A DNA stretch of 64,000 nt from Clostridium sp. (GTDB lineage: Bacteria > Bacillota > Clostridia > Clostridiales > Clostridiaceae), in contig NZ_JBOITM010000084.1 of assembly GCF_050717535.1 (NCBI RefSeq), positions 1,067 through 65,066 of the forward strand, in the 5' to 3' direction. Position numbers and translations under genes: made by a program. The first letter of the stretch is position 1, and every line of letters starts with the position of its first letter. Under the pieces are notes generated by a model, which did not search any database, was not told the DNA's origin, and saw nothing but the letters and a program-made list of their open reading frames with translations. Shown here piece after piece: positions 11,653-44,000 of this stretch.

Positions 11653-12099
11653 TTGAAAAAATTAAATCCTCAAAGTTTAAGTGTTAATTTTGGAATTGGG
11701 GCAAATAAGACAGAACCAATTATTCCTAGAAAATATACCCTTACTCATTCAGATATTACGGGAGAGTTATTTTTAACTATTGCGGAAAAATATGATTATG
11801 AGAAAATCACCGATATGAGGGACGAGGTGCTAGCAGAATGGATTATGGCTAATGATGACTATGCCTTGATGGTTAATGTCATGGTAGATAATGAGAGGAA
11901 TCCAGTAATGTCAGCTATTCGCAATGATATTTTTGTAAGAGAGCTCCCCTTAGCATTGGAGGCAATCATTTATGGCGATAGGGAGCTTTTAAAAACTAAT
12001 TCATTTTTATACAAGACACCTATTTATGTGAAATTTAATTCTGATTATCCCGTGTTTAATCGTTTAGAACTATGGGGAACGTTGTCAGATTACAAGTAG
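11653..12099 (+). CDS. Staygreen (SGR) family protein, Mg-dechelatase homolog
   Basis: PRKYTLTHSD.TGELFL.I, RDEVLAEW, ELPL.LEAI.YGD motifs. Confidence 0.9.
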   Translation: MKKLNPQSLSVNFGIGANKTEPIIPRKYTLTHSDITGELFLTIAEKYDYEKITDMRDEVLAEWIMANDDYALMVNVMVDNERNPVMSAIRNDIFVRELPLALEAIIYGDRELLKTNSFLYKTPIYVKFNSDYPVFNRLELWGTLSDYK

Positions 12100-12146
12100 A
12101 AATATTCGTCGTAGATTGTTAATATTACAAAGCGATAGGTGATGAT

Positions 12147-12641
12147 TTAATTCATCATCCATATAGCATAGTTCAAAACTCCAGCAAAGGAGACCCAAAC
12201 TATATAAGGGATCATAAGATAACCAGATGTCTTATCTATCCTATAAAACTCAAAACAAGTTAAAAGAATTAATACTAATAATAGAAGTAATTCTAAGAAA
12301 GCTATTGCATATAGCCTAAATCTAAAAAATATAATAGACCAAAGAAAGTTTAAAAATAACTGAGCACAATATAAAGTTAATGCTTTTGATACATCTTCTC
12401 CGGCTTTACCTTTCATCCAAATTCTATAAGCAGCTACAGCCATTAAAAAGAATAGAATTGTCCATACTACAGGAAAAACCCAGCCAGGGGGTGAAAAAGG
12501 TGGTTTATTGAAATTTGTATAATCACTAGAGGCGGTCATACTCAAAAGACCACTTAGTAAACCTACACCTTGTGCCAGTAGAATGCTAATAATAAGAGCA
12601 ACAATGTTTTTTTCACCGTTTACCTTGAAAATATTAAACAT
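12147..12641 (-). CDS. tspO: TspO/MBR family tryptophan-rich membrane protein
   Basis: KPPFSPPGWVFPVVWTIL, LNFLWSIIFF, PYIVWVSFA motifs. Confidence 0.92.
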   Translation of the reverse strand: MFNIFKVNGEKNIVALIISILLAQGVGLLSGLLSMTASSDYTNFNKPPFSPPGWVFPVVWTILFFLMAVAAYRIWMKGKAGEDVSKALTLYCAQLFLNFLWSIIFFRFRLYAIAFLELLLLLVLILLTCFEFYRIDKTSGYLMIPYIVWVSFAGVLNYAIWMMN

Positions 12642-14580: not shown

Positions 14581-14640
14581 TTGACATATACTATAAAAAT
14601 ATATATACTTTGATTATCAAACTATTTGAAAATCAAAGTA
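14581..14640 (+). promoter_or_regulatory. SigA promoter with tandem FabT/MarR-type operator
   Basis: TTGACA(14581)-17 bp-TATACT(14604), overlapped by tactttgattatcaaactatttgaaaatcaaagta (14606-14640). Confidence 0.85.
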
Positions 14641-14656
14641 AAGGGAGAGGATAATT

Positions 14657-15730
14657 ATGAAGTTACCTCCTTTAAAAATTGGAGAATTAATAGCACGTGT
14701 TCCTATAATTCAAGGTGGTATGGGTGTGGGAGTATCTCTGTCCTCATTAGCATCAGCAGTTGCAAATGAAGGTGGAATTGGGATAATATCTACTGCTCAA
14801 ATTGGGTATAGGGAAAAAGACTTTGGAACTGATGCAAAAGAGGCAAACAAAAGAGCATTAAGAAATGAAATTATAAAAGCTAGAGAGTTAAGTCCTAAAG
14901 GAATTATAGGAATAAATATTATGGTAGCTATGAATAACTATGAGGAATTAACAACAGTTGCTTTAGAAGAGGGCATAGATATAATAATATCTGGCGCAGG
15001 TCTTGCACTTAATCTACCTAAAATAGCTAAAGGATTCAAAACAAAACTTGCGCCTATAGTATCATCAGCAAAGGCAGCTACAGTTATATCGAAAATGTGG
15101 GATAGAAAAGATAAATGCGCCGCAGATTTAATTGTTGTAGAAGGGCCAGAAGCTGGAGGACATCTTGGGTTCTCTATGGAGTCACTTATAGAAAACAAAG
15201 CTCAAGACTTATTGGACATAGTCAAAGAAGTTATTGAAGCAATTAAGCCGTTTGAAGAGAAGTATAATAAAAAAATACCAGTAGTAGCTGCTGGTGGAGT
15301 ATATACTGGAGCTGATATTGCAGAACTTATAAAAATCGGTGCTGCAGGAGTACAAATGGCTACTAGATTTGTTGCTACTGATGAATGTGATGCTAGTTTA
15401 GCATTTAAAATGGCATATATTAATTCAAAAAAAGAAGATATAAAGATAGTAAAAAGCCCTGTAGGCATGCCTGGAAGAGCTATTAATAATAATTTTATGA
15501 AGAGTGTTCAGGAAAATGGTTGTAAGGTAGATAAATGCTATTTATGCATTAAGGACTGTAATCCAAAACAAACCCCTTATTGTATTACAGAAGCGCTTAT
15601 ACAAGCGGTAAAAGGAAACTTAGATAAGGGACTTATTTTTGTAGGAAGCAACGCGGCCAAGGTAGAAAAGATTGTTTCTGTTAAAGAACTTATGAGTGAA
15701 TTAGTAACAGAAGCAGAACTTGCTCTTTAA
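14657..15730 (+). CDS. Nitronate monooxygenase-family flavoprotein, FabX/UfaA-like (C-terminal 4-Cys cluster motif)
   Basis: PIIQGGMGVGVS, EGPEAGGHLG, GVQMATRF, and CYLCIKDC-x7-C, which the canonical FabK downstream lacks. Confidence 0.8.
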   Translation: MKLPPLKIGELIARVPIIQGGMGVGVSLSSLASAVANEGGIGIISTAQIGYREKDFGTDAKEANKRALRNEIIKARELSPKGIIGINIMVAMNNYEELTTVALEEGIDIIISGAGLALNLPKIAKGFKTKLAPIVSSAKAATVISKMWDRKDKCAADLIVVEGPEAGGHLGFSMESLIENKAQDLLDIVKEVIEAIKPFEEKYNKKIPVVAAGGVYTGADIAELIKIGAAGVQMATRFVATDECDASLAFKMAYINSKKEDIKIVKSPVGMPGRAINNNFMKSVQENGCKVDKCYLCIKDCNPKQTPYCITEALIQAVKGNLDKGLIFVGSNAAKVEKIVSVKELMSELVTEAELAL

Positions 15731-15817: not shown

Positions 15818-15877
15818 TTGACAAATAACTGGTATACAGATATACTTTGATTATCAAAGTATTTGAAAATCAAAGTA
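15818..15877 (+). promoter_or_regulatory. SigA promoter with tandem FabT/MarR-type operator (second copy)
   Basis: TTGACA(15818)-17 bp-TATACT(15841); operator 15843-15877 differs from the 14606-14640 copy at one base. Confidence 0.88.
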
Positions 15878-15895
15878 TAGGAAATGGTGATAAAC

Positions 15896-16348
15896 ATGAG
15901 CAAATGTGTTGGAGTTGTCAATGAACTTCTAGTAGAAACCTTTAATGATATAATGCAAATAGAACAGAAGGCTCTTAAAGAAGGGGTACTTAATGATTTA
16001 TCAATAACAGAAATTCATACTATTGATGCTATAGGAATGTACGAATTTAGAACTATGACACAAGTATCCCAAGATCTTAAAATAACTTTAGGCACTCTTA
16101 CTACAGCTATAAGCAAACTTATGAAAAAGGGTTATGTAGATAGAAAAAGAGGCGAAGAAGATAGAAGATCAGTAATGATTGCTCTTACTAGAAAAGGAAA
16201 ACTAGCCTATAGAATACATAACAAATTTCATTCAAATATGGTGCATGCAACTATAGATGGTCTTAATGATGAAGAAGAAGAGATATTAATAAAATCTCTT
16301 GAAAAATTAAACAATTTCTTCAAAGAAAAATACAAATTAGAAGGTTAA
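15896..16348 (+). CDS. fabT: MarR-family fatty-acid biosynthesis repressor (FabT-like)
   Basis: MarR wHTH (DLSITEIHTIDAIG...KKGYV.R.R..EDRR.V...LT.KG); first gene of the fab operon, palindromic operator upstream. Confidence 0.85.
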   Translation: MSKCVGVVNELLVETFNDIMQIEQKALKEGVLNDLSITEIHTIDAIGMYEFRTMTQVSQDLKITLGTLTTAISKLMKKGYVDRKRGEEDRRSVMIALTRKGKLAYRIHNKFHSNMVHATIDGLNDEEEEILIKSLEKLNNFFKEKYKLEG

Positions 16349-16366: not shown

Positions 16367-17350
16367 ATGAATGAGGTACAAATAATTGGTACAGGAAGTT
16401 ATGCTCCTCTAAATATAATGACTAATAATCAGTTATCAGAAATTGTAGATACTTCTGATGAATGGATAATTTCAAGAACCGGCATCAAGCAAAGACATAT
16501 ATCACAAGGGGAGAACACTTCTGATTTAGCCACAAAAGCAGCATTAGAGGCATTAAAAGATGCTAATATTAAAGCTGAAGATATAGATTTAATAATCCTT
16601 GCAAGTACATCCCCAGATCAATTTGTTCCAGCTACTGCATGCATAGTTCAAGGGAATATAGGAGCTGTTAACGCTATGGCCTTTGATATATCAGCAGCAT
16701 GCACAGGTTTTATATTTGCTCTTAATATAGCAATGCAATTCTTAAAAACTGGTAACCGTAAGCACGCATTAATAATAGGTGCAGAGGTATTATCAAAGAT
16801 TGTTGATTGGACAGATAGAAATACTTGTATACTATTTGGGGATGGTGCAGGAGCAGCAGTACTTGAAGCAGGTAGTGTAAGAGGAATTATTTCCGTGGAT
16901 TCAGCTTCAGAAGGACAAAAATCTCATTTTTTAACTTGTTCAACTGTAGATGTGAAAAATACTTTTACAAGTGGACATGAAGATTTTAAAGCTACAATAA
17001 GTATGGATGGCAAGGAAATCTTTAAGTTTGCAGTAAATACTATTGTAAAAAGTATAAATAAAATCTTAAATGATAATAATTATACTTTAGAAGATATTAA
17101 ATATGTGGTTTGCCATCAAGCAAATTTCAGAATAATAGATTTTGTTGTAAAAAGATTGAAAGCTGACAAAGACAAGTTCTTTGTAAACTTAGATAAGTAT
17201 GGAAATACTTCAGCAGCAAGTATAGCTATAGCATTAGACGAAATGAATAAAACAAATTTACTTACAGCTGGAGATAAAATTATACTTGTAGGCTTTGGTG
17301 GTGGATTAACCTACGGAGCTTCATTAATAGAATGGACAATTAACAAATAA
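16367..17350 (+). CDS. fabH: 3-oxoacyl-ACP synthase III
   Basis: AACTGF, CHQAN, YGNTSAAS catalytic motifs. Confidence 0.97.
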   Translation: MNEVQIIGTGSYAPLNIMTNNQLSEIVDTSDEWIISRTGIKQRHISQGENTSDLATKAALEALKDANIKAEDIDLIILASTSPDQFVPATACIVQGNIGAVNAMAFDISAACTGFIFALNIAMQFLKTGNRKHALIIGAEVLSKIVDWTDRNTCILFGDGAGAAVLEAGSVRGIISVDSASEGQKSHFLTCSTVDVKNTFTSGHEDFKATISMDGKEIFKFAVNTIVKSINKILNDNNYTLEDIKYVVCHQANFRIIDFVVKRLKADKDKFFVNLDKYGNTSAASIAIALDEMNKTNLLTAGDKIILVGFGGGLTYGASLIEWTINK

Positions 17351-17370
17351 AATATTAGGAGGAATTAATA

Positions 17371-17601
17371 ATGGTATTTGAAAAAGTTAAAAAGGTAATA
17401 GTTGAACAATTAGGAATAGATGAGGTAGAGGTTACAATGGAGGCAAATTTTGCAGATGATTTAGGAGTAGATTCTCTTGAAATATTTGAAATTGTAATGT
17501 CACTTGAGGAAGCTTTTGAGATTGAAATACCAAATGAAGATATAGAAAATATTAATGATGTAAAAGGAATTGTTAAATATATAGAAGCAAAACTTAAATA
17601 A
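17371..17601 (+). CDS. acpP: Acyl carrier protein
   Basis: DLGVDSLE phosphopantetheine site. Confidence 0.97.
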
Positions 17602-17777: not shown

Positions 17778-18710
17778 ATGTTTAATTCTGTATTTTTTGA
17801 AGATTTAGGTATAAAGTATCCAATAATACAAGGTGGAATGGCTTGGGTTGCAGATAGTAGTTTGGCATCAGCAGTATCTAATGCAGGGGGCCTCGGTATT
17901 ATAGCAGCAGCAAATGCGCCCACTGATTATATAAGAGATGAAATTAGAAAAGCAAAGAAGTTAACAGATAAACCTTTTGGTGTGAATATAATGCTACTAA
18001 GTGATAACGCAGAAGAAATTGCACATCTTGTATGCGAAGAAGGGGTTAAGGTAGTAACTACAGGGGCAGGTAATCCAGGAAAATACATGGATCTTTGGAA
18101 AGAACATGGGATTAAGGTAATACCAGTAGTAGCTTCTGTAGCATTGGCTAAGCGTATGGAGAGAGCTGGAGCAGATGCAGTCATTGCAGAAGGTTGTGAA
18201 TCTGGAGGACATATAGGTGAACTTACTACTATGGCACTAGTTCCTCAAGTTGTTGATGGAGTTAATATTCCAGTAATTGCAGCAGGTGGCATAGGGGATG
18301 GGCGTGGCGTGGCAGCAGCATTTATGCTTGGAGTACAGGGAGTTCAAGTAGGAACAAGATTTTTAGTAGCAAATGAGTGTACAATTCATGAGAATTACAA
18401 AAAAAAGGTATTAGGAGCAAAGGACATAGATTCTGTGGTTACAGGAAGACCTACAGGCCACCCAGTTAGGGTTTTAAAAAATAAGTTATCAAGACAATTT
18501 CAGAAGCTTGAAAAGGAAAATGTATCAGTAGAGGTTTTAGAAGAACTTGGACGAGGATGTCTACAAAGGGCAGTTAAAGAAGGCGATATCGAGATGGGAT
18601 CCGTTTTGGCAGGACAAATTGCAGGTCTTGTAAAGAAAGAACAAAGTTGCAAAGAAATTATAGAAGAGATGTTTACTCAGGCAGAGGAAACTATAAAAAA
18701 ACTTAGATAA
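17778..18710 (+). CDS. fabK: Enoyl-ACP reductase II
   Basis: PIIQGGMAWV, EG.ESGGHIG, GVQVGTRF, GHPVR; aggagggg RBS before ATG 17778. Confidence 0.95.
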   Translation: MFNSVFFEDLGIKYPIIQGGMAWVADSSLASAVSNAGGLGIIAAANAPTDYIRDEIRKAKKLTDKPFGVNIMLLSDNAEEIAHLVCEEGVKVVTTGAGNPGKYMDLWKEHGIKVIPVVASVALAKRMERAGADAVIAEGCESGGHIGELTTMALVPQVVDGVNIPVIAAGGIGDGRGVAAAFMLGVQGVQVGTRFLVANECTIHENYKKKVLGAKDIDSVVTGRPTGHPVRVLKNKLSRQFQKLEKENVSVEVLEELGRGCLQRAVKEGDIEMGSVLAGQIAGLVKKEQSCKEIIEEMFTQAEETIKKLR

Positions 18711-18757: not shown

Positions 18758-19714
18758 ATGAGTAAAATTGCTTTTATTTTTCCAGGACAGGGAGCTCAAT
18801 ATATTGGAATGGGTAAGGAATTATTTGAGAATATAGAGGTTTGTAAAAATATATTTAAGATTGCAGATAAAGAGCTGGGTTTTGAATTAAGCAAACTTTG
18901 TTTCGAAGGAACACAAGAGGAACTAAATATTACGGAGAATACTCAACCGGCTATTTTAACTACTAGTATAGCAGCTCTTATGGCATTAGCTCAGCATGGT
19001 ATAAAGTGCGATGTAACTGCAGGACTTAGTCTTGGAGAGTATTCAGCACTAGTTTGCAGTGGAGTTATGGATTTTGTGGATGCTGTAAAACTTGTTAAAA
19101 AGCGTGGGAAATTTATGCAAGAGGCAGTGCCAGTAGGAATAGGAACTATGGCAGCTATAATAGGCCTTACGACAGGTTGTGTTGAAGAAATTTGTAGTGA
19201 GGCTAGAACTTCTGGCATAGTAGAGATCTCTAATTTAAATTGCCCAGGGCAAATAGTAATTGCCGGGGAAATAGTTGCGGTAGAACATGCTTGCGCAGCA
19301 GCAATAGAAAAAGGTGCAAGAAAAGCAGTTATTTTACCAGTAAGTGCACCTTTTCATACTTCTATGTTAAAACCCGCAGCAGAAAAATTGGAAATTGAGC
19401 TTAAAAATATAAATCTTAAAGAAATGACTATTCCAGTAATGTCAAATGTAAACGGTGATTATGTAAAGAGTAAGGGCGATATAAAATCTAATTTAAAACT
19501 TCAAGTTATGAGTTCTGTTTTATGGGAAACAATTATAAGAAATATGATAAAGGATGGTGTTGATACCTTCGTAGAGATAGGACCAGGCAAGGTATTACGT
19601 GGCTTTATTAAAAATATAGATAGAAAACTTACAGTGGTGAATGTAGAAGATATGGCATCTTTAGACAAAGCTGTCTCCACATTAAATAAAGTAGTACAAT
19701 TACATAAACAGTAG
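18758..19714 (+). CDS. fabD: Malonyl-CoA:ACP transacylase
   Basis: FPGQGAQ, GLSLGEY, SAPFH motifs. Confidence 0.97.
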   Translation: MSKIAFIFPGQGAQYIGMGKELFENIEVCKNIFKIADKELGFELSKLCFEGTQEELNITENTQPAILTTSIAALMALAQHGIKCDVTAGLSLGEYSALVCSGVMDFVDAVKLVKKRGKFMQEAVPVGIGTMAAIIGLTTGCVEEICSEARTSGIVEISNLNCPGQIVIAGEIVAVEHACAAAIEKGARKAVILPVSAPFHTSMLKPAAEKLEIELKNINLKEMTIPVMSNVNGDYVKSKGDIKSNLKLQVMSSVLWETIIRNMIKDGVDTFVEIGPGKVLRGFIKNIDRKLTVVNVEDMASLDKAVSTLNKVVQLHKQ

Positions 19715-19815
19715 AATTACTTAAATTCCAAAATTCATTAATTAACAAAACTGTTTAATAAGCACAACTAATGAAGAGATAAAATCACTATAAACATGTA
19801 AAGGAGCACGGATAT

Positions 19816-20559
19816 ATGTTAAAGGGAAAAACAGCAGTAGTAACAGGAGCTAGTCGAGGCATTGGAAGAGCCATAGCAATAAAGCTAGCAAAACTTGGAG
19901 CAAATATAGTTGTTAATTATAGAAATAGTGTAGATGCGGTGCAGGAAGTAGTTAAAGAAATAGAAGCTTTTGGAGTTAAAGCACTAGCTGTTCAGGCTGA
20001 TATAAGTAGTTATAGTGATGTAGAGTTTATGATGAAAAAATGTATTGAAGAATTCGGAAGTTTAGATATTCTAGTTAATAATGCTGGCATAACAAAAGAT
20101 GGGCTTTTAATGAGAATGAAGGAAGAGGACTTTGATAGTGTTATAGATATTAATCTAAAGGGTGCTTTTAATTGCACAAGGCATGTATCATCCATAATGC
20201 TTAAACAAAGAAGTGGGAGAATAATAAATATATCCTCAGTGTCTGGACTTACAGGTAATGCTGGCCAAGTAAATTACTGCGCTGCTAAGGCAGGAGTAAT
20301 AGGAATGACTAAGGCTGTGGCTAGAGAATTTGGGGGTCGCGGAGTTACTTGTAATGCAGTAGCACCAGGATATATTCAAACAGACATGACTGTGGCTTTG
20401 CCTGCGAAAGTAGTGGATGTTATAATGAGCACTATTCCACTAAAGAGACTTGGCATGCCTGAAGATGTAGCAAATGCAGTAGCATTTTTAGCCTCAGAGG
20501 AAGCGGCGTATATAACAGGTCAGGTTATAAATGTAGATGGCGGAATGGTAATGCAGTAG
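19816..20559 (+). CDS. fabG: 3-oxoacyl-ACP reductase
   Basis: TGASRGIG, NNAG, Y.AAK SDR motifs. Confidence 0.97.
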   Translation: MLKGKTAVVTGASRGIGRAIAIKLAKLGANIVVNYRNSVDAVQEVVKEIEAFGVKALAVQADISSYSDVEFMMKKCIEEFGSLDILVNNAGITKDGLLMRMKEEDFDSVIDINLKGAFNCTRHVSSIMLKQRSGRIINISSVSGLTGNAGQVNYCAAKAGVIGMTKAVAREFGGRGVTCNAVAPGYIQTDMTVALPAKVVDVIMSTIPLKRLGMPEDVANAVAFLASEEAAYITGQVINVDGGMVMQ

Positions 20560-20611
20560 AAAAGACGGTTAATATAGCACTTATAGGTGATATTAAAGGA
20601 GGTTTCATTTT

Positions 20612-21853
20612 ATGAAAAATAGAGTTGTTATAACAGGAATGGGAGCAGTTACTCCTATAGGAAATGATGTAGTTAATTTTTGGGATAATGTAAAACTAGG
20701 CACTTGTGGCATAGATATAATTAAGTCTTTTGATATTTCAGAATACAAATGTAAAATGGGTGCAGAGGTCAAAGACTTTGATGTAACAGTTGCACTTGGC
20801 ATTAGAGAAGCTAGAAAAATGGATAAATATTGTCAATATGCAATGGTGGCTGCTGATGAAGCAGTTAAAAATTCTGGACTTGACCTACAAGCTATAGATA
20901 GTGAAAAATTAGCAGTAATAGTTGGATCAGGAATAGGTGGAATTGGAACTATTGAGAAAGAGCATGCAAAGCTTATGGAAAAAGGGCCGAGCAGAGTATC
21001 TCCATATTTAATACCTATGATAATAGGCAATATGGCAGCTGGAAACATTGCAATAAAGTATGGTGCTAAAGGTATGTGCTCAAGTGTAGTTACGGCTTGC
21101 GCCACAGGAACTAATGCAATAGGAGATGCTTTTCACCTCATTCAAGATGGAAGAGCAGACATAATAATAGCTGGAGGGGCAGAAGGGTCAATAACACCAC
21201 TTGCACTGGCGGGATTTACCTCTTTAACAGCTTTAACTAAAAGTGAAGATCCACTAAGAGCATCTATTCCTTTTGATAAAGAAAGGTCTGGTTTTGTTAT
21301 GGGAGAGGGCGCAGGTATAGTTATACTTGAATCTTTAGAGCATGCAAAAAAAAGAAATGCAAAAATATATGCTGAGATGAAGGGTTATGGTGCAACTTGT
21401 GATGCCTATCATATTACTTCACCATCACCAGATGGCGATGGTGCAGCAAGAGCAATGATAATGGCGCTTAAAGATGCAGATGTTAAGCCTTGCGAAGTAT
21501 CATATATCAATGCACATGGAACAAGTACTCCATACAATGACAAGTTTGAAACTGTAGCTATAAAATCTGCCTTTGGAGAATCTGCATATAAAATACCTAT
21601 AAGTTCAACAAAATCTATGACTGGACACCTACTTGGAGCATCAGGAGCAATAGAAGCCATAGTATGTATAAAAGCCTTAGAAGAAGGTTTTATACCAGCA
21701 ACTATAGGATATAGTGTTCCAGATGAAGATTGTGATTTAGATTACGTTCCAAACATTGGAAGAGAGCAGCAGCTTAAATATACAATGTCAAATTCACTAG
21801 GATTTGGTGGTCACAATGCTTCAATATTATTTGAAAAATGGGATGGTAAATAA
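20612..21853 (+). CDS. fabF: 3-oxoacyl-ACP synthase II
   Basis: TACATG, NAHGTST, GHLLGA, SNSLGFGG motifs. Confidence 0.97.
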   Translation: MKNRVVITGMGAVTPIGNDVVNFWDNVKLGTCGIDIIKSFDISEYKCKMGAEVKDFDVTVALGIREARKMDKYCQYAMVAADEAVKNSGLDLQAIDSEKLAVIVGSGIGGIGTIEKEHAKLMEKGPSRVSPYLIPMIIGNMAAGNIAIKYGAKGMCSSVVTACATGTNAIGDAFHLIQDGRADIIIAGGAEGSITPLALAGFTSLTALTKSEDPLRASIPFDKERSGFVMGEGAGIVILESLEHAKKRNAKIYAEMKGYGATCDAYHITSPSPDGDGAARAMIMALKDADVKPCEVSYINAHGTSTPYNDKFETVAIKSAFGESAYKIPISSTKSMTGHLLGASGAIEAIVCIKALEEGFIPATIGYSVPDEDCDLDYVPNIGREQQLKYTMSNSLGFGGHNASILFEKWDGK

Positions 21854-21855
21854 TT

Positions 21856-22374
21856 ATGGATTATAAAAATATTGAAGAGTTAATAAAAACCGTTAGTGAT
21901 TCACAGCTTACATTATTTGAAATTGAGACAGAAGGTATTAAAATAAAGATGGAGAAAAAAGAGAAGCAGGTAGTGGTAGAGAGAGCGCCTGCATCGGAAG
22001 TGCCTGCTAAATCAGTTATTGAGGATTCAATAACTAGCAAAAATATAGCTACCAATCCAATGATAGCAGAAAACCTAGATAGCAAAACAGCTAGTGCTAT
22101 TGAAAATGTAGCCGAGATAATACCAGATAAAAATATATTTATAGTTAAATCACCTATTGTTGGGACTGTGTATTCTTCACCTAGCGCAGAATTACAAAAC
22201 TTTGTTGAAATTGGTTCTGTAGTTAAAAAGGGAGATATTCTTTGTATTTTAGAAGCTATGAAGCTTATGAATGAGATTGAAAGTGAAGTAGATGGAGAAG
22301 TTGTAGAAGTATTAGTTTCAAATGAAGATATGGTAGAGTACGGACAGCCACTATTTAAAATACGTAAAAAATAG
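21856..22374 (+). CDS. accB: Acetyl-CoA carboxylase biotin carboxyl carrier protein
   Basis: EAMKLMNEI biotin site. Confidence 0.97.
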   Translation: MDYKNIEELIKTVSDSQLTLFEIETEGIKIKMEKKEKQVVVERAPASEVPAKSVIEDSITSKNIATNPMIAENLDSKTASAIENVAEIIPDKNIFIVKSPIVGTVYSSPSAELQNFVEIGSVVKKGDILCILEAMKLMNEIESEVDGEVVEVLVSNEDMVEYGQPLFKIRKK

Positions 22375-22437
22375 GTGCTAAAAGTCAATTTTAAAATATC
22401 AGTTGTCCATTGATTTAATTTTTAGAAAGGTGGAAGA

Positions 22438-22893
22438 ATGTATATGGAAGATATAAAAGGTACTACTTTAAATATAAAACAAATTCAAGAGATTATCCCT
22501 CATAGATATCCATTTTTATTTGTGGATAAAATAGAGGAATTAGAGCCAGGAAAAAGAGCTGTAGGCTATAAGAATATTACTATGAATGAGTATTTCTTTC
22601 AAGGTCATTTTAAAGCGGAGCCTATACTACCAGGAGTCATAATTATTGAAGCTCTAGCACAGGTTGGAGCAGTGGCACTTTTAAGTATGGAAGACTATAA
22701 AGGTAAAATTGCTTACTTTGGTGGAATAAATAAAGCTAGATTCAGAAAAAAAGTTGTTCCTGGAGATGTGCTTAGACTGGAAGTAGAAATAATCAAAATG
22801 AAGGGACCTGTTGGAATTGGTAAGGCAGTAGCTACAGTAAATGGAGAAAAGGTTGCAGAAGCTGAAATTACGTTTGCAGTAGGGATTGAATAA
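22438..22893 (+). CDS. fabZ: 3-hydroxyacyl-ACP dehydratase
   Basis: PHRYPFL.VD, GHF...P..PGV..IEALAQ motifs. Confidence 0.97.
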
Positions 22894-22922
22894 TAATTTT
22901 GAGTGCAGGGAAGGTAAATAAT

Positions 22923-24269
22923 ATGTTTAAGAAGATATTAATTGCTAATAGAGGCGAAATAGCAGTAAGAATAATTAGGGCTTGTCATGAAATGGGTATT
23001 CAAACTGTGGCAGTATATTCTGAGGCTGATAAAACTGCTCTTCATACACAAATGGCAGATGAGGCAGTTTGTATTGGACCTGCTAAATCGAAGGATAGTT
23101 ATTTAAATATGCAAAACATTTTAAGTGCCACAGTGCTTACAGGTGCAGAGGCAATTCATCCGGGTTATGGGTTCTTATCTGAAAATAGTAAGTTTGCACA
23201 GATGTGTGAGGAATGTAATATAAAATATATAGGGCCAAGTTCCCAGAATATTGATAATATGGGTAACAAGTTAAAGGCAAGAGAAATTATGATAATAGCT
23301 GGTGTGCCAGTAGTTCCTGGGTCAGATGGATCAATTGACTCTGAAATAGAAGCAATAAGTTCTGCGCAAAAAATAGGATACCCTGTAATGATAAAGGCTT
23401 CAGCAGGTGGAGGCGGACGTGGGATAAGGGTTGTTACAAAAGAAGAAGATCTTATACCTGCATATAATACCGCAAGAGCAGAATCAAAAACTGCATTTGG
23501 TGATGACACGATGTACATGGAAAAATTTATTGAAGAGCCAAGACATATAGAGTTTCAAATACTTGCAGATGAGCATGGAAATATTGTTCATCTTGGTGAA
23601 CGTGATTGTTCTGTTCAAAGGAGAAATCAGAAGGTAATAGAAGAGGCGCCAGGAGCTGCAATGACCCGAGAACTTAGAAAACAGATGGGTGAGGTTGCGG
23701 TTAAGGCGGCTAAATCTATTAATTATAAAAATGCTGGGACTATAGAGTTTTTATTAGATAAGCATGGAAAATATTATTTTATGGAGATGAATACTCGTAT
23801 ACAGGTAGAGCATCCAATAACAGAGATGATCACTGGGGTAGATTTGGTTAAAGAACAGATAAACATTTCTTCGGGACAAGTGCTCAAATATAAACAAGAG
23901 GACATAAAAATTCAGGGGCATGCTATAGAATGTAGGATAAATGCAGAAAATCCTAATAGAAATTTTATGCCTTGTCCAGGTGAAATAAAATCACTTCATC
24001 TTCCTGGAGGAAATGGAGTAAGAATTGATAGTGCGGCATATCAAGGATACAAAATTCCACCTACTTATGACTCTATGATAGGGAAACTTATTGTTCATGG
24101 AAGAGATAGAAACGAGGCGCTATGTAAAATGAGAAGGGCCTTAGGGGAATTTATAATAGAAGGTGTTGATACTAATATAGATTTCCAATTTAAAATAATA
24201 AATAATGAAAACTTTATTAAAGGAAAATTTGATACTAGTTTTATAAGTAAAGAATTTAAGGATCTTTAA
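22923..24269 (+). CDS. accC: Acetyl-CoA carboxylase biotin carboxylase
   Basis: ANRGEIA, HPGYGFLSEN, GGGGRG, EMNTRIQVEH motifs; start moved to the ATG after aaggt. Confidence 0.97.
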   Translation: MFKKILIANRGEIAVRIIRACHEMGIQTVAVYSEADKTALHTQMADEAVCIGPAKSKDSYLNMQNILSATVLTGAEAIHPGYGFLSENSKFAQMCEECNIKYIGPSSQNIDNMGNKLKAREIMIIAGVPVVPGSDGSIDSEIEAISSAQKIGYPVMIKASAGGGGRGIRVVTKEEDLIPAYNTARAESKTAFGDDTMYMEKFIEEPRHIEFQILADEHGNIVHLGERDCSVQRRNQKVIEEAPGAAMTRELRKQMGEVAVKAAKSINYKNAGTIEFLLDKHGKYYFMEMNTRIQVEHPITEMITGVDLVKEQINISSGQVLKYKQEDIKIQGHAIECRINAENPNRNFMPCPGEIKSLHLPGGNGVRIDSAAYQGYKIPPTYDSMIGKLIVHGRDRNEALCKMRRALGEFIIEGVDTNIDFQFKIINNENFIKGKFDTSFISKEFKDL

Positions 24270-24333
24270 AAAGTAGCTAAATGCATGCATCCATTGTAGG
24301 TAGTGTAGTGTGTTTTTAGAAAGGGGTAGTTAT

Positions 24334-25194
24334 ATGTTTGAGTTTAACCGTATATTTAAAAAGAGTAGATATATTGAGGTTAAAAACACAGAAGATGAAG
24401 ATGGCGAAAAAAAACCTAATATCCCCACCGGAATGTGGGTTAAATGTGAAACTTGCGGTAAGATACTTTACAGTAAGGATTTAGAAAACAGTATAATGAC
24501 CTGTGAAAATTGTAGAACCCATTTCAGAATTGGTTCTAGAGAAAGAATAAATTACACCATAGACAGTGGAACTTTTATAGAATACGATAAGAATATGATT
24601 TCAGATAATCCAATAGATTTTGATGGATATGAAGAAAAACTTCAAGAGTTAAGAGATAGAACATTATTAAATGAAGCTGTAATAACTGGAGAAGGAAAGA
24701 TAAATGGTCAGGATACAATAATTGCAGTAATGGATAGTAATTTCATGATGGGAAGTATGGGATCTGTTGTTGGGGAAAAAATTACAAGGGCTATTGAAAA
24801 AGCTACAGAAACCAAAAAACCAATTATTATATTTACAGCTTCAGGGGGGGCTAGGATGCAGGAAGGCATATACTCTCTAATGCAAATGGCGAAAACTAGT
24901 GCGGCGATTGCAAGGCATAATAAAAAGGGCGGCCTTTATATAACTGTTCTTACAGATCCAACTACCGGAGGAGTTACAGCGAGTTTTGCAATGCTTGGAG
25001 ATATAATAATAGCTGAGCCTAATGCATTAATAGGTTTTGCAGGTAAAAGAGTTATTGAACAAACAATAAAGCAGCAATTGCCTGAGGGCTTTCAAAGGGC
25101 AGAATTTTTGCTTGAAAAGGGTTTTATAGATAAGGTAGTTGATAGAAAAGCTATGAAGGATACTTTAACGGAGATACTAAAAATTCATTCATAG
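24334..25194 (+). CDS. accD: Acetyl-CoA carboxylase carboxyltransferase beta
   Basis: C..C...C..C zinc finger, [15 protein letters not shown] motifs. Confidence 0.97.
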
Positions 25195-25224
25195 CTAATA
25201 GTAACACGTTGGGAGTGAGATTTT

Positions 25225-26175
25225 ATGGTTACTTTACCTTTTGAAAAGCACATGTACGAACTTAAGAGTAAAATAGATGAATTAAAAAATTTAGCAACAG
25301 ACCAAAATTTGGATTTAGAAAAAGAAATAAGGCAAATGGAAGTTAAGCTCTATAATATGCAAAAGGAAGCTTATAAAAATTTAACTGCTTGGGATAAGGT
25401 AAGTATAGCAAGACTTGTAGAGCGGCCTACTGCTCTTGATTATATAAACCTAATCTTTGACTCCTTTATTGAGCTACATGGAGATAGATATTATGGAGAT
25501 GATGCGGCTATTGTAGGTGGAATTGCATATTTAAGTGGTATTCCTGTAACTGTTATAGCTCAACAAAAGGGAAATAATACTAAGGAAAACATAAAGAGAA
25601 ACTTTGGTATGCCTAGTCCTGAAGGATATAGAAAAGCTTTAAGACTTATGAAACAGGCGGAAAAATTCAGCAGACCTGTTATTTGCCTTGTGGATACCCC
25701 AGGGGCATATTGTGGACTTGGTGCAGAAGAAAGAGGCCAAGGAGAAGCAATTGCTAGAAATCTTATGGAGATGTCAACATTAAAAACCCCAATAATCTCA
25801 ATAGTTATAGGAGAGGGTGGAAGTGGTGGAGCTTTAGCAATGGCTGTAGCAGATGAGGTTTGGATGTTAGAACATGCGATTTATTCTATTTTATCACCAG
25901 AGGGTTTTGCTTCTATATTATTTAAAGATGCGAGTAGGTCAAAAGAAGCAGCCAATGTAATGAAAATAACAGCTCAAGATTTAATTGAATTTGGAATAAT
26001 AGATAGAATTATAAAAGAACCTCTAGGTGGAGCGCATACAAATGTAGATGAGATGGCAGCCAGCATTAAACGTAATTTAGAGGAATCAATTAATAGATTA
26101 ATATGGGAACCTATAGAATCATTACTTACTAAGAGATACTACAAATTTAGAAAGATTGGCAAGGTAGTAGAATAA
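25225..26175 (+). CDS. accA: Acetyl-CoA carboxylase carboxyltransferase alpha
   Basis: [35 protein letters not shown] motifs. Confidence 0.97.
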
Positions 26176-26330: not shown

Positions 26331-27212
26331 ATGAGTAAAACACTTAGTGACACAATTTTAGTAATAGATTCAGGATGCGATTTACCTTTAGATTATATAG
26401 GGCAAGAAAATATAGTACCCATAGGTTTAGTGTGCAATTTTAAAGGTGAAACAATAGAGGATGACTTTGGTAAAAAATTTATTCGTAAAGACTTTTATGA
26501 TGCATTAAGGCAAGGAGAAATGCCTACTACTTCACAGATAAATAGCCAAAGATATCAAGAGGTTTTTAGAAAGTATGTGAAGGAAGGAAAGCCTATTATA
26601 TATATTGTTATGTCTTCTGGAATATCCGGAACTATAAATAGTGCAAATTTAGCAAAAGAAACTATACTTGAAGAGTTCCCTGATTCTAATATAAGTATAG
26701 TTGATAGTAAATGTGCAAGTCTTGGGCAAGGACTTTTAGTTTATTATGCTTATGAAATGTTAAAAAAAGGAAAAACAAAAGATGAAATAGTTACCTGGCT
26801 AGAGGAAAACAAGCTTAGAATTAACCATTGGTTTACAGTTAATGATTTAAATCATTTAAAAAGAGGTGGAAGAATTTCAAGTTCTGCTGCAACAGTTGGT
26901 ACTTTGCTTAATATAAAACCTGTTTTGTTTATGGATAATGATGGACGACTAATTCCTTTTTCTAAATGTAGAGGAAGAAAAAAGGCAATACACACCTTAG
27001 CTGAAAAATTCATAGAAAGATCAGACCCAAATGTAAAACAAGTTATTGCCATAGGCCATGGGGATTGCATTGAAGATGCATTGACTCTGGAGGAGTTGGT
27101 TCGCGAAAATGGAAATGTTGAAGATGTCATTTTAAATTATGTAGGAACGGCAATAGGATCTCATACGGGACCAGAAATATTAGGATTATATTTTATAGCT
27201 AAGGAAAGATAA
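26331..27212 (+). CDS. degV: DegV/FakB fatty-acid-binding protein
   Basis: DS.CDLP, TSQ, SS..SGT..SA, L.RGGRIS, H.GP motifs. Confidence 0.95.
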   Translation: MSKTLSDTILVIDSGCDLPLDYIGQENIVPIGLVCNFKGETIEDDFGKKFIRKDFYDALRQGEMPTTSQINSQRYQEVFRKYVKEGKPIIYIVMSSGISGTINSANLAKETILEEFPDSNISIVDSKCASLGQGLLVYYAYEMLKKGKTKDEIVTWLEENKLRINHWFTVNDLNHLKRGGRISSSAATVGTLLNIKPVLFMDNDGRLIPFSKCRGRKKAIHTLAEKFIERSDPNVKQVIAIGHGDCIEDALTLEELVRENGNVEDVILNYVGTAIGSHTGPEILGLYFIAKER

Positions 27213-28650: not shown

Positions 28651-30417
28651 TTAGTTAGATGAAATCTTTTGAGTAATCTTTAATGCAGAAACCAGTGCAT
28701 TTACAGAGGCTTCAATTTCACTGTCACTGGATTTATCATTTCCAAGCTCAATAAGAGCCGAATTGTTAGATAAATCTTGATTAAAATAAGATATTCCAAA
28801 GGTATACAAGTATATTTCTGATTTAATTCCACTTGTAGTTTTAATATTGGCTATTAGGTTGTCTACGAGTTTCTTATTTGTTTTATAGTGAGGGCTCTTT
28901 TTAGTAAGGTCAAAATGTATTTTTACCGCATCAGATTTGTTTTTTACCGTTATATCACGATGTATGTCTAATAAAATAGTATTTGAATATGACTTTACAT
29001 TTTTTGTTATTAAGTCACGTGAAGTTTGATATGATTTATTATAATCTGTAGATGGGTCAATTTTTATGAAATGGCTATTAAAACCTTCACTAATAAGCTT
29101 ATCATTGAGTAAAGCACCTACATCAGTTACTTTTATTCCAGAGGGGTAAGCTTCATCAGGATGACTATTATAAATCACTATGTCAGATGAAAATGGTACT
29201 ATAGGATTTGTATTAGCTTTTGATGATTTTTTTAGAGTAAGTGCTGACGCATTTGGTGTACTATTAACTGTAATTTTAGAAGATACCACTGGCGTTTTCA
29301 CTTTCAATACTGTAGCTTTACCGATATTTTTATCTGAGCTTATATTTGAAGAGTTTAGTGCAATTCCTAGGCTTCCTATAATTATGACAACTACTGAACC
29401 AAGTAATATACCCTTAATATTTATCTTTTTATACTTTGAAATCATAATAATCCTCCTTTTTAATTCTGAACTATTCATAACCATTGGGGTAGTCCCAATA
29501 AGTCTATTACTGCTGCGAGCCAGCTCTAATACTCGTATTAATGCATTACCATATTCCAGATGACCACCTTGCTCTAAAAGTGAAATCACTCCACTATCAC
29601 AGGAGAACTCACAGTCTTGTCTCATTCTATGAAAGGCATAGAGTAAAATTGGATTAAACCAGTAAATAATTGACAACAGTGTTATAACCCAATTTATAAA
29701 CATGTCTTTGTTTTTCAAATGGGTTAATTCGTGCATTACTATATACTTAAATTCCTCATCACAAACATTAACCTCTACACTCAATGGAATTAGTATCGTT
29801 GGTTTAATTAGTCCACATAAGGAAGGACTGACTATTTTTGTAGAATATGAGAGCTCTACCTCAGTTCTTATATTCATAGTTTTCATGCAGTCATATAGGA
29901 GTTCACTATGTGCGATAGTTACAGTTTTTATAGAAGTTCTAATGATTTTTCTGAGCTTTTTATGTCCTGCAAATAATATACATATTAATAACAAAATCCC
30001 AGAGAACCATATTGTACAGAATATTTTTTTCATGTTAATATTGGTGTTTGAAGGTATATTCATAGATTGCTTAATTAAACTTTTATTTGAAGTCTCAAAA
30101 GCACTTATTGATATTGAATCCCCTAAGTTAGAACTAATAAGTTGCTCTGAACAGTTAATTTGTGATTTCTGGTTGCTTTCATTTATTGTGGACTGCACAT
30201 ATGAATTTTCATATAGATTAGAAATATTTAAAGGGGTTTGTGGTCCAAAAGGAATTATTAATTTTATGAGCAAGATTAACCATATATAATAATGAAAAGT
30301 TGGACTTAATTTATTTTTAAATATTGTTTTAGCAATTAATATTATTAGTACGATTACACCACCAATTAAAGATGAAAGTACAATCTTATCAAATATATTT
30401 ACTATAACCATACACAT
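28651..30417 (-). CDS. BlaR1/MecR1-type M56 metallopeptidase fused to a C-terminal SpoIIP-like amidase domain
   Basis: N-terminal TMs, SP...G..KP.I.IP, HELTH (HExxH), E..CD; after the last TM come IYNSHPDEAY, LDIHRD, NQDLS..ALIELG. ATG overlaps the blaI stop (TGATG). Confidence 0.85.
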   Translation of the reverse strand: MCMVIVNIFDKIVLSSLIGGVIVLIILIAKTIFKNKLSPTFHYYIWLILLIKLIIPFGPQTPLNISNLYENSYVQSTINESNQKSQINCSEQLISSNLGDSISISAFETSNKSLIKQSMNIPSNTNINMKKIFCTIWFSGILLLICILFAGHKKLRKIIRTSIKTVTIAHSELLYDCMKTMNIRTEVELSYSTKIVSPSLCGLIKPTILIPLSVEVNVCDEEFKYIVMHELTHLKNKDMFINWVITLLSIIYWFNPILLYAFHRMRQDCEFSCDSGVISLLEQGGHLEYGNALIRVLELARSSNRLIGTTPMVMNSSELKRRIIMISKYKKINIKGILLGSVVVIIIGSLGIALNSSNISSDKNIGKATVLKVKTPVVSSKITVNSTPNASALTLKKSSKANTNPIVPFSSDIVIYNSHPDEAYPSGIKVTDVGALLNDKLISEGFNSHFIKIDPSTDYNKSYQTSRDLITKNVKSYSNTILLDIHRDITVKNKSDAVKIHFDLTKKSPHYKTNKKLVDNLIANIKTTSGIKSEIYLYTFGISYFNQDLSNNSALIELGNDKSSDSEIEASVNALVSALKITQKISSN

Positions 30418-30800
30418 CAACCTTTCGTTTTACTTGATTGTTCTAGTATGTTTTTTAATTCTGCTATATCTGTTTCGGATATTTCCTCTGACTGGGCGAA
30501 GGTTAAAAGCATAGATTTAATAGAGCCATTAAATACCCTATTGACAAAGGACACACTTTCTAATTTTATGCATTCATCTTCTGATATCAAAGGAAAATAG
30601 AAGTATTCATAACCTAATTTATTAAATCCAATTACATTTTTATTTAACAATCTGTTTATCAGGCTTTTAACTGTTGCTGGTTTCCACTGGGATTTATCTT
30701 TTAGATGCTGCATAATATTGATTGATGAGATTTCGGGATTATTCCATATTATTTTCATTACTTCCCATTCAGCATTTGATATTTTAGGAATTTCAACCAT
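30417..30800 (-). CDS. BlaI/MecI/CopY family repressor
   Basis: ISNAEWEVMKIIW, W...TVKSLINRL..K..I, F.GS...M motifs; ggagg RBS before ATG 30800. Confidence 0.93.
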   Translation of the reverse strand: MVEIPKISNAEWEVMKIIWNNPEISSINIMQHLKDKSQWKPATVKSLINRLLNKNVIGFNKLGYEYFYFPLISEDECIKLESVSFVNRVFNGSIKSMLLTFAQSEEISETDIAELKNILEQSSKTKG

Positions 30801-40587: not shown

Positions 40588-41068
40588 TTATGAGAGCTGA
40601 ATTTTTTATATAAAAAAACTATTCTACTTTTATAAAGTAGGTAATTTCATCTATGGGTATAGGTTCTTTTTTCCAAATTTTATAATAAGCAAAGTGTATT
40701 TTGCATTCACCGCATTTTAAAGGCTTGAACTTCCCAATAATCTGATGATGGCCACCTAGTATATTTATAATTCTTACTATTGTCTCTTTAATATTTTTTT
40801 TATTCATGTAACAATATCATTGTAAATGTTGTTTTAGTATTGATATTTGACGTTATATAATAAAAAAAGATAAAGCATATATTACTTTGGTATAATGATA
40901 GATAAGTACAAATTTTAAAGGCATTATAAAATATTGAAAAAATAGAATATTTTTATTTAAATTTATAATAATATACAAGAAATATGGTTTATTTATATTA
41001 GCTTAGTTTATTAAGTGTATTTTTAGAATTAATGTAAATATTTAATTGATATTGAGGAAGTGATTGAA

Positions 41069-44000
41069 ATGGAGATTATTAATAATAGGTATAGAGTAGT
41101 AAAATGTATAAAACAAAACAGAGTAGTTTCCAGTTATGCAGTTAATGACATAATAAAAAATTATGATACTATACAATTAAATATTCTTAATTCAGAATAT
41201 TTACAAAAGGGATTAATAGAATTCTATACAAAAGAGTTTATGAGTTTAACTAACCTATCCTGTGAAAATATGATATCAGTGTATGATTTTAATTTGGTTA
41301 ATCTTTTAGATAATAAAAAATTAAATGATAAAGTGTATTTTTACACAAATGAATACCTTCAAAATAACACTAGTATTTTAGATATTGTAGGGGACATGCA
41401 AAGTGAAGAATTATTAGATTTATTTATAGAGATTTGCCAAAGTATAAATTATATTCATTTAAAGGGTTTTATTTATGGAAATATAAATTTATCTAATATT
41501 ATAGTTTCAAATACGGTTTTTAATAAAAAAATTTCTATTAAATTTAAAGATTTTGCTACAGTTGAACTTGAAAAGCAGGAGTTTTGGAAGGACGAAAATA
41601 AGGTGGATTATTTTAAGGCACCAGAAATATCAAAAGGGGAAATATGTAGTGTTTTTAGCGATATATATTCTCTAGGAGTATTATTATTTGTTATGTATAT
41701 GAAAAGTAAAGATTATAATATCTCCATTAATGATGAAATTAAATCTTTCGATGATGTAAAACTTGAAGAAATATTCAATAGTAATGAGGATTTCAATGTG
41801 GATTTTAAAAATATTATTGAAAAAATGACCTATAGTGATGCTGATAAAAGATATAGAAGTATTTCAGAATTAGTAATGGATATAAATATGATTTTTAATA
41901 AACAGTATGTACCGCATAGAAAAAAAGAAATAGAAAAATTGAACTTTAATTTGAAAATGATAGGCAGAGATGAAGAAGTTAATAAAATTATGGATATTTA
42001 CGAATCTATTAAAAATAAAAACAATTATAATTCTACTATTTTAATCCATGGAGAATCAGGTATTGGTAAAACTCGTTTTCTTGATTCACTAAAATATCTC
42101 TTTTCTTTAAAAAAAGTAAATGCTTATAGCAGTTTTACTCTAGATGCATCTACTAAAGATAGTAATAAGGCTTTTATAGATATATTAAAGCAATTTATTT
42201 CTGAATGCCAAGGAGAAGTGTTAGAAAGATATGAGTCGGAATTAGTTAAATTCCTACCTGAACTTGGTGGTAAAAAAAACATAATTCCATCTGAATCATT
42301 AAGTGGTGATAAAGAAAAATTTAGACTTATACATTCCGCAATGGGATTTATAGAAGAGTGTATAAACAGTAAACCTATAGTTATAATTATTGATAATTTT
42401 CACCTAGCGGATGATTTTACTATAGAACTAATGGAATATATTATAAGGAAAAAATCACCTAATAAAAATATAATGACCATATTATCCTATTGTGATGGAG
42501 AATGTTTAGTAAATAAGAAATTTATAGAATTTACAAAAAATATATCACACAATAGTGGTGAAACTAATATTTTTTTAAAAGAACTAGGTGAAAAAGAAGT
42601 AGGTGAGATGATTCAAAATATTTTATGTATGCCTGAAATACCCTATAAGTTTACAGATAGTATATATGAAAAGACAAAGGGAAATCCGTTATTTGTGCAA
42701 GAAATTATAAAGAGCTTTTTTAATGAAAAGTATATTTATGTAGATAGTGAAGATGGATGCTGGAGTAGGGATTGTGAATATTCTAAATTTATAGTGCCTA
42801 CAGATATGCATGGAGTATTATTAAATCAAGTTAAAGAAATGGAAGAAACAAATTACAATATTTTAACAGTAATATCTATATTTAATAGCGCTGTTTCTTT
42901 AGAAATAATTAAGAGCTTTATTAAAAATGAGAATAATGATTTAGAGAAAGCTATCGAAGGGCTTATTTCCTCGGGAATATTATGCAAAAAAATTGAGGAC
43001 AGAGGATTTGTATTTGATTTTTACAATAAATTTCTTAAAAGCCTTATGTATGAGAAAATTAGGCTTGAAGATAGAAAAGTTATGCATAGATTAGCCTCAG
43101 TAGCACTTGAAAATCAATATAAAAAGGGTGGAACAGAATATGTTTATGAACTAATTTATCATTTAGAAAAATCTAATCAAGAGGGAAAGATTATTGATTA
43201 TTGCATTGAAAATGCTGAAAAAATGAAACTTCTAAAAAATAGAAGTGATGCAATAAAAAATTTAACTAAAGCTGAATCTATTTTAGACTATTCTTTTGAT
43301 TCGATTAAAAATATAAAGCTCATTATGGATCTTGCTAATTTACACGAACAAGAAGGTCATATTGATTTAGCTATAAAATACTATTTATCAATAGGAAAGT
43401 ATAAGCAGCATGCTGCGCTACATAAGTACATAATAGATAGCTTAATTAAAGTAGCAAAAGTATATCTAAATAAAAATGATATAGAAAGTACTGTATATTA
43501 TATTGAAGAAATTAAGGTTATGCTTTCCAAAGTAGATTATGTTTCAGGGATGCTTAGATGTGAAGGAATCCTAGCTGCTGTATATGACATAAAGCAGGAT
43601 TATAAAAGTGTACAAACTATATGTAACACTTGTTTAGAGCTTTGCACTGGGGAATATGAAGAACTGAAAACTAAATTTTATAACTATAAGGGCTTATATT
43701 ATTTAAGAAGTGGTAGAGCTGACAAAGCATTAGCGATTTTTGAAGAAAATATAGAGGTATGTAGTAAATATAATAATATTAGGGGCATAATAAAATCTTT
43801 AAATAGAATAGGTGTTATTTATGGAGATTACTATCAAGATGATAATAAAGCCATAAAATATTTTATAAAGATGAAGGATATCTGTGAAAAAAATAATATG
43901 AGCTCAGAGGTGGTACTTGCTTTAATAAATATAGGTGCTACATATTTTTCAATGGGAAAGTATGAAATATCCTTACAGTATTTTATAGAGACACTAGAAA

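Follow-up and report, generated by a model that had tools for sequence, protein, structure and literature searches.

The open reading frame at positions 14657 to 15730 (+ strand) of the window, the 64,000-nucleotide stretch of Clostridium sp. DNA analysed here, encodes 357 amino acids and is preceded by a ribosome-binding site (14643 to 14650, +). The predicted protein, hereafter called the FabX-like protein, is labelled nitronate monooxygenase (NMO) in databases and has a Pfam NMO match; profile searches, alignment and a structure model identify it as a FabX/UfaA-type FMN/[4Fe-4S] protein of the NMO family. Its closest named homologue, from C. bowmanii, is 96 % identical, the source organism belonging to the C. 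estertheticum group. When compared with close orthologues, synonymous codon changes exceed non-synonymous ones 2 to 3 fold, indicating that the gene is under selection. The N-terminal GGMGVG and the C-terminal CxxCxxxC-x7-C to which the initial annotation drew attention are both present, whereas the FabK encoded at 17778 has GGMAW. In alignments, GGMGVG (residues 20-25; 14714 to 14731, +) corresponds to the FMN/tunnel loop G22-G27 of Helicobacter pylori FabX, and His169 (15161 to 15163, +) to its catalytic His182. A basic helix of residues 136-152 (15062 to 15112, +), containing K139, K146 and K151, is the equivalent of the ACP-docking helix alpha-7 of FabX as judged from alignment mapping, the model and conservation. 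The four cysteines, spaced C294-x2-C297-x3-C301-x7-C309 (15536 to 15583, +), correspond to C300/C304/C308/C320 of H. pylori FabX and are predicted from the profile alignment and their conservation to be [4Fe-4S] ligands.

The neighbouring fab cluster, on the + strand, contains the gene of a MarR-family FabT-like repressor (15884 to 16348; NF050133, 166 bits, below the cut-off of 200), fabH and acpP (16367 to 17601; profile match) and fabK (17778 to 18710), a true enoyl-ACP reductase gene according to TIGR03151 and to C. difficile FabK as the top solved-structure match of its product. Downstream of fabK the cluster extends from 18758 to 26175 (ORF calls, profile matches and genome searches). 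A gene of the DegV/FakB fatty-acid-binding family follows directly after accA at 26331 to 27212, and the source genome has at least seven DegV-family genes. Elsewhere in the window are an 1819-amino acid protein with protein kinase, AAA ATPase, TPR and GGDEF domains (41060 to 46519), a BlaR1-type M56 peptidase fused to a SpoIIP-like domain (28651 to 30420, - strand), and a Staygreen-family gene convergent with a TspO/MBR gene (11653 to 12641).

The two top-scoring promoter-like sites of the region are both of the sigma-70 type, with 11 of 12 positions matching. P1 (14581 to 14609, +), consisting of TTGACA, 17 nt and TATACT, precedes the fabX-like gene, and P2 (15818 to 15846, +), with the same hexamers and spacing, is located in front of fabT. 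A tandem palindromic operator, O1 (14606 to 14640), recognised by repeat analysis and from the regions upstream of orthologues, covers the -10/+1 region of P1 and consists of two 17-bp imperfect inverted repeats about 16 bp apart. A near-identical tandem operator found by repeat analysis, O2 (15843 to 15877), covers P2. The O1 and O2 blocks have 49 of 61 bases in common, and the 15-mer operator core occurs exactly twice on the 4.45 Mb genome, at O1 and O2. The earlier proposal that the gene has its own promoter with the same operator as the fab operon is thus borne out. Other single operator-like sites in the genome do not have the tandem/promoter layout. A single operator-like site with a ribosome-binding site before a homoserine-dehydrogenase-like gene (L133:2200-3267; G000:C88) has no tandem partner and is probably a chance occurrence. 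The MarR protein encoded next to the fabX-like gene is presumed to be the FabT-like repressor controlling both operators, and would do so by binding the tandem palindrome. No terminator was found between the fabX-like gene and fabT, the spacer folding no better than shuffled sequences (z -1.1), so P1 may read through into the fab operon and also transcribe it.

The palindrome was found just upstream of the fabX-like gene in 48 of 79 related loci, compared with 8 matches in about 3000 random windows, and a -35/-10 geometry like that of P1 is kept upstream of orthologues in many genera. The operator also stays with the gene at loci where it sits away from the fab cluster. In twelve further loci from Clostridium species, among them C. 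tetani, C. sporogenes and C. tyrobutyricum, there is a single operator, and fabT closely follows the fabX-like gene, which is the first cistron. The second promoter, P2, is present throughout the estertheticum group and sporadically elsewhere. A connection with cold adaptation was considered and rejected, since possession of the gene is a general feature of the family and P2 is found also outside the psychrotolerant group (L095, L116, L120, L121); the fabX-like gene is not special to the source genome or to cold-living clostridia. At Romboutsia/Peptostreptococcaceae loci (L040, L043, L046-L049, L051, L056, L058) a different 17-bp imperfect palindrome, which we take to resemble the FapR box, is found at a fixed distance, about 65-80 bases upstream of the homologue. 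As a lead only, given that the loose pattern matches 3-9 times per locus, this homologue may be controlled by a second, unrelated fatty-acid regulator.

The initial annotation had assigned the protein to FabX/UfaA rather than to FabK, and sequence, profile, quick tree, structure model and comparative genomics all agree with this assignment. The two paralogues of the cluster have 31 % identity, and against the FabK profile TIGR03151 (cut-off 453.1) the protein encoded at 17778 scored above the cut-off (517.6 bits) and the FabX-like protein below it (131.5 bits). In the alignment with H. pylori FabX and FabK that had been proposed as a check, the top solved-structure match of the FabX-like protein was H. 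pylori FabX (7E1Q, E about 8e-74 to 9e-74), the best FabK reaching 1e-28; when 102 homologues were combined in a profile, FabX was matched at 1e-101 and FabK at 8e-39, with the four cysteines aligned one to one with C300, C304, C308 and C320. The AlphaFold model (pLDDT 95) superimposed on 7E1Q with TM 0.89, Z 49.8 and rmsd 1.7 Å over 345 residues (41 % identity), as against TM <=0.74 and Z <=37.7 on FabK structures and Z 28-35 on true NMO structures, a fit not wholly independent of the sequence match, since the known structure of FabX may have influenced the model. In a quick tree, FabK was split off by a branch of 2.69 changes per column (SH-aLRT 100), and the homologues from Parabacteroides, Fusobacterium, Neisseria, beta-proteobacteria and cyanobacteria were on the side of the FabX-like protein, the Fusobacterium and Neisseria branches being long. 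The tree was built without H. pylori FabX, whose residues were mapped through the alignments to structure and profile matches. Close homologues are also found in gut Lachnospiraceae and Bacteroidales, that of P. distasonis being 51 % identical. The protein encoded at 14657 is confirmed to be an NMO flavoprotein of the FabX/UfaA subfamily, not a FabK.

No variation was seen among 200 homologues at His169, E162, N87, S267, the four cysteines, I310, L314 and F328, nor at the FMN residues. Conserved in all 200 are thus both H169 and S267, which correspond to His182 and the supporting Ser273 of H. pylori FabX, and the four cluster cysteines, which occur in none of 38 FabK sequences. The H. pylori FMN residues G22, G23, M24, G25, N99, E175, G180, G220, G221, Q240, T243, F339 and G341 all have identical counterparts, and the protein is likely to bind FMN and a [4Fe-4S] cluster. 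In the model the ACP-docking helix spans residues 138-152, with K139, V143 and K146 kept (K152, I156 and K159 in H. pylori). Other ACP-contact residues are changed (H. pylori R160 to M147, R164 to K151 and T130 to L118), as are residues of the tunnel (G50 to Q48 and Y277 to M271, with a shorter 74-75 region).

Short homologues of about 310-324 amino acids, from Bacillus cereus-group plasmids (L125:2983-3954) and Cetobacterium (L129:2049-2936), have four cysteines spaced CxxCxxxC-x4-C and GGMGVG/GGMGI, but do not have the ACP-docking helix extension. The cysteine motif therefore marks the subfamily and not the function, and the GGMGVG and cysteine motifs, which had earlier been taken as diagnostic of FabX function, do not serve as such on their own. 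Homologues in Cupriavidus adjoin U32-peptidase/SCP2 (UbiUVT-like) and Crp/Fnr genes, and those on cyanobacterial plasmids are found near psbA, in Pseudanabaena also near a heme oxygenase gene; these settings (L128:242-4140; L130:1788-4976; L124:3992-7889) look like low-oxygen gene clusters.

No fabA, fabB, fabM, fabN, fatty-acid desaturase or PfaD/Pfa synthase gene was found in the whole source genome, which is 99 % complete; the absence of fabA, fabB and fabM noted earlier for the cluster is thus true of the genome. There is one gene with the FabA/FabZ fold and one fabF, and the single crotonase-family gene is crt-like and located beside a rex-like gene. Neither in the fab cluster nor with the tandem operator was another candidate enzyme for unsaturated fatty acid (UFA) synthesis found. 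It was in a clostridium that the anaerobic UFA pathway was originally proposed. C. acetobutylicum and E. coli make the same UFAs; FabF of C. acetobutylicum has FabB activity, its FabZ is without isomerase activity, and the enzyme introducing the cis double bond was declared unknown in 2009 (PMC2700279). A FabX-type protein heading the fab operon would fill a gap of this kind.

The fabX-like gene is present in 166 of 185 fully scored Clostridiaceae genomes (about 90 %) and usually heads the fab operon. Across families it is found next to fab clusters in several layouts, as the first gene, after accA or divergent from fabH. No match was found in 19 of the 185, and most of the few of these that were checked had no obvious substitute. 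One Clostridiaceae genus without the gene (3 of 3 genomes; G043, G086, G117; L142, L143) has PfaD-type genes instead; in this genus Pfa-like multi-domain genes with FabA-type dehydratase and PfaD domains were observed.

Sixteen genomes have the fabX-like gene and no FabK match, and a FabV-type reductase is present in 15 of these, from five genera, compared with 27 of the 150 genomes with both the fabX-like gene and FabK, a tally which is not a statistical test, related genomes not being independent and the swap representing about five lineages. In one FabK-less genome (L109) FabV and the fabX-like gene are neighbours with an operator at each. FabV-type genes of FabK-less Clostridiaceae have the same operator upstream (L090:1211, L092:1181, L109:10461), and FabV appears to have been recruited into the regulon of the operator. 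Since genomes that have lost FabK carry FabV even though they retain the fabX-like gene, the FabX-like protein is probably not the enoyl reductase, in line with the earlier view that it is not a redundant FabK.

The FabX fold and residues, the position at the head of the fab cluster, the shared operator and the lack of another known UFA route in the genome make it quite probable that the protein encoded at 14657 is the source of the cis-3-acyl-ACP from which clostridia form unsaturated fatty acids, and it would then be the branch-point enzyme of their synthesis. C10 acyl-ACP, and perhaps also C12, would dock on the basic helix, and the cis-3-enoyl-ACP released, which FabK would be unable to reduce, would be elongated by the single FabF, while the FabT-like repressor would control the fabX-like gene together with the fab operon. 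Helicobacter FabX, suggested earlier as the model, is apt in that FabA, FabB and FabM are absent there too, but its need for O2 had been overlooked: dehydrogenation by H. pylori FabX requires O2 as electron acceptor, and isomerisation does not (PMC8626469). In a strictly anaerobic host the clostridial enzyme would have to do without the O2-consuming step, and O2-dependent dehydrogenation of acyl-ACP is unlikely in vivo.

The bypass could take two forms. The FabX-like protein may isomerise the trans-2-enoyl-ACP made by FabZ, in competition with FabK and with no net redox change, which is the favoured form, with a probability a little short of even. As a close second, possible although less than probable, it may also dehydrogenate acyl-ACP, with electrons leaving through the near-surface cluster to an acceptor other than O2, as presumed for Neisseria UfaA. 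No co-regulated electron-acceptor gene was found. In classical labelling work with C. butyricum, decanoate reportedly entered the delta-7/delta-9 series rather than delta-9 16:1, a pattern which isomerisation without backtracking would fit. Low-potential clostridial carriers are poor acceptors for the acyl/enoyl-thioester couple. For this reason, and because isomerisation by FabX does not need O2 (PMC8626469), isomerisation is preferred over dehydrogenation. By extension, and with the balance tilted somewhat against it, the Firmicute/Bacteroidota subfamily with CxxCxxxC-x7-C may be an oxygen-independent FabX variant that does nothing but isomerise trans-2- to cis-3-enoyl-ACP, FMN and the cluster taking part with no net redox change.

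Against a role in UFA synthesis count the identity to FabX of only about 41 %, with partly changed ACP-contact and tunnel residues, the occurrence of the cysteine motif in the short Bacillus and Cetobacterium homologues, the 19 Clostridiaceae that gave no match, and two observations from F. nucleatum: another enzyme, FnFabM, has been linked to monounsaturated acid synthesis (PMC11753016), and overexpression of fabX led to an eightfold higher MIC of a FabK inhibitor (PMC11091888). The latter, a partial offset of FabK inhibition, would suit a second enoyl-ACP reductase, FabK-like in function and for instance chain-length specific or fed by ferredoxin or flavodoxin through the Fe-S cluster instead of by NADH. 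The FabX-like protein does share its barrel, FMN site and His with FabK and belongs to the same regulon, and in a clostridium thermodynamics favours reduction. A second reductase is nevertheless unlikely, as the protein fails TIGR03151, its Fe-S subdomain sits at the position of the NAD(P)H motif of FabK (PMC8626469), FabV accompanies the fabX-like gene in all but one of the FabK-less genomes, and the clostridial UFAs would be left without an enzyme.

The changed tunnel and ACP-contact residues could also reflect another lipid redox role within the fab regulon, such as modifying or editing of acyl-ACP (e.g. handling of 2,4-dienoyl or cis-enoyl groups), the double bond being made by a different enzyme. 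Homologues do occur in varied low-oxygen gene clusters, and FMN with [4Fe-4S] is the cofactor set of FadH as well (PMC12691678). Both members with a tested UFA role, FabX and UfaA, make UFAs, however, and the lack of a further candidate in the cluster or with the tandem operator argues in the same direction, so that this role is if anything a shade less probable than the reductase. A true nitronate monooxygenase or generic flavin oxidoreductase, located beside the fab operon by chance, would agree with the database names and the Pfam NMO match, but H. pylori FabX itself bears the NMO label in its PDB sequence file. With solved NMOs matching far more weakly (Z 28-35 compared with 49.8), below FabX and below FabK, with fab linkage and operator conserved, and with NMO needing O2, this is highly improbable. 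The preferred reading remains that of an enzyme of UFA synthesis.

The FabX/UfaA family, its solved structures, the naming by homology in other anaerobes and the 2011 proposal for anaerobes lacking FabA are already known; added here are the evidence on the regulon, the replacement of FabK by FabV and the problem posed by oxygen. No biochemical or genetic test of a clostridial FabX/UfaA was found in a literature search, although the role may already be proposed or tested in Isabella and Clark 2011, Bi et al. 2016 or a 2024 review. The FabX-like protein is the best candidate for the long-sought O2-independent double-bond enzyme of clostridia. The surprise would be modest, the family and the general idea being known. 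If the proposal is true, a "nitronate monooxygenase" gene of about 90 % of Clostridiaceae gains a core function, with a bearing on membrane fluidity in solvent-producing and in cold-growing spoilage clostridia, and the question is raised of how FabX-type catalysis proceeds in the absence of O2. The reported rarity of FabX homologues in gut bacteria, a claim based on a 50 % identity threshold (PMC8626469), would also have to be qualified. A pure-isomerase variant, if true, would be the enzyme underlying the Goldfine-Bloch pathway of clostridia, and gut and soil anaerobes would commonly make their unsaturated membrane lipids by this route.

Among known systems, H. pylori FabX (HP0773; 7E1Q/7E1R/7E1S; PMC8626469) is similar in its NMO TIM barrel, FMN site, catalytic His, four-Cys C-terminal subdomain and basic alpha-7 helix, with about 41 % identity, rmsd 1.7 Å and a host without FabA, FabB and FabM. 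It differs in its cysteine spacing, CxxxCxxxC-x11-C instead of CxxCxxxC-x7-C, and in residues R160, R164, G50 and Y277, which are M, K, Q and M, respectively, in the FabX-like protein. It needs O2 and makes superoxide, whereas the clostridial host is a strict anaerobe, and H. pylori has no FabK, whereas here the fabX-like gene is encoded together with FabK in a FabT-type regulon. UfaA of N. gonorrhoeae (NGO1024) is of the same subfamily and, according to PMC11300592 and PMC4549310, is required for anaerobic UFA synthesis, the acceptor being unknown. The N. gonorrhoeae homologue compared here (L127), an unannotated record taken to be UfaA, has 33.6 % identity, is longer and has another cysteine spacing. 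Going by the title of Isabella and Clark 2011, the UfaA idea was already extended there to obligate anaerobes lacking FabA. The FabX homologues of Bacteroidales and Fusobacterium are likewise from anaerobes and were named by homology, at 40-51 % identity to HP0773, the phenotypes shown being antibiotic tolerance only (PMC11300592, PMC11091888).

FabK (C. difficile 7L00, S. pneumoniae 2Z6I and the gene at 17778, which is 31 % identical and in the same cluster) shares the barrel, FMN and His, but has no Cys cluster, a GGMAW loop and a short alpha-7, forms a separate long-branched clade and catalyses the opposite reaction. Streptococcal FabM differs in being a cofactor-free enzyme of the crotonase fold, the only crotonase-family gene here being crt-like; if isomerisation is the true reaction of the FabX-like protein, the two would be alike in converting trans-2 to cis-3 in competition with FabK and under FabT-type control.
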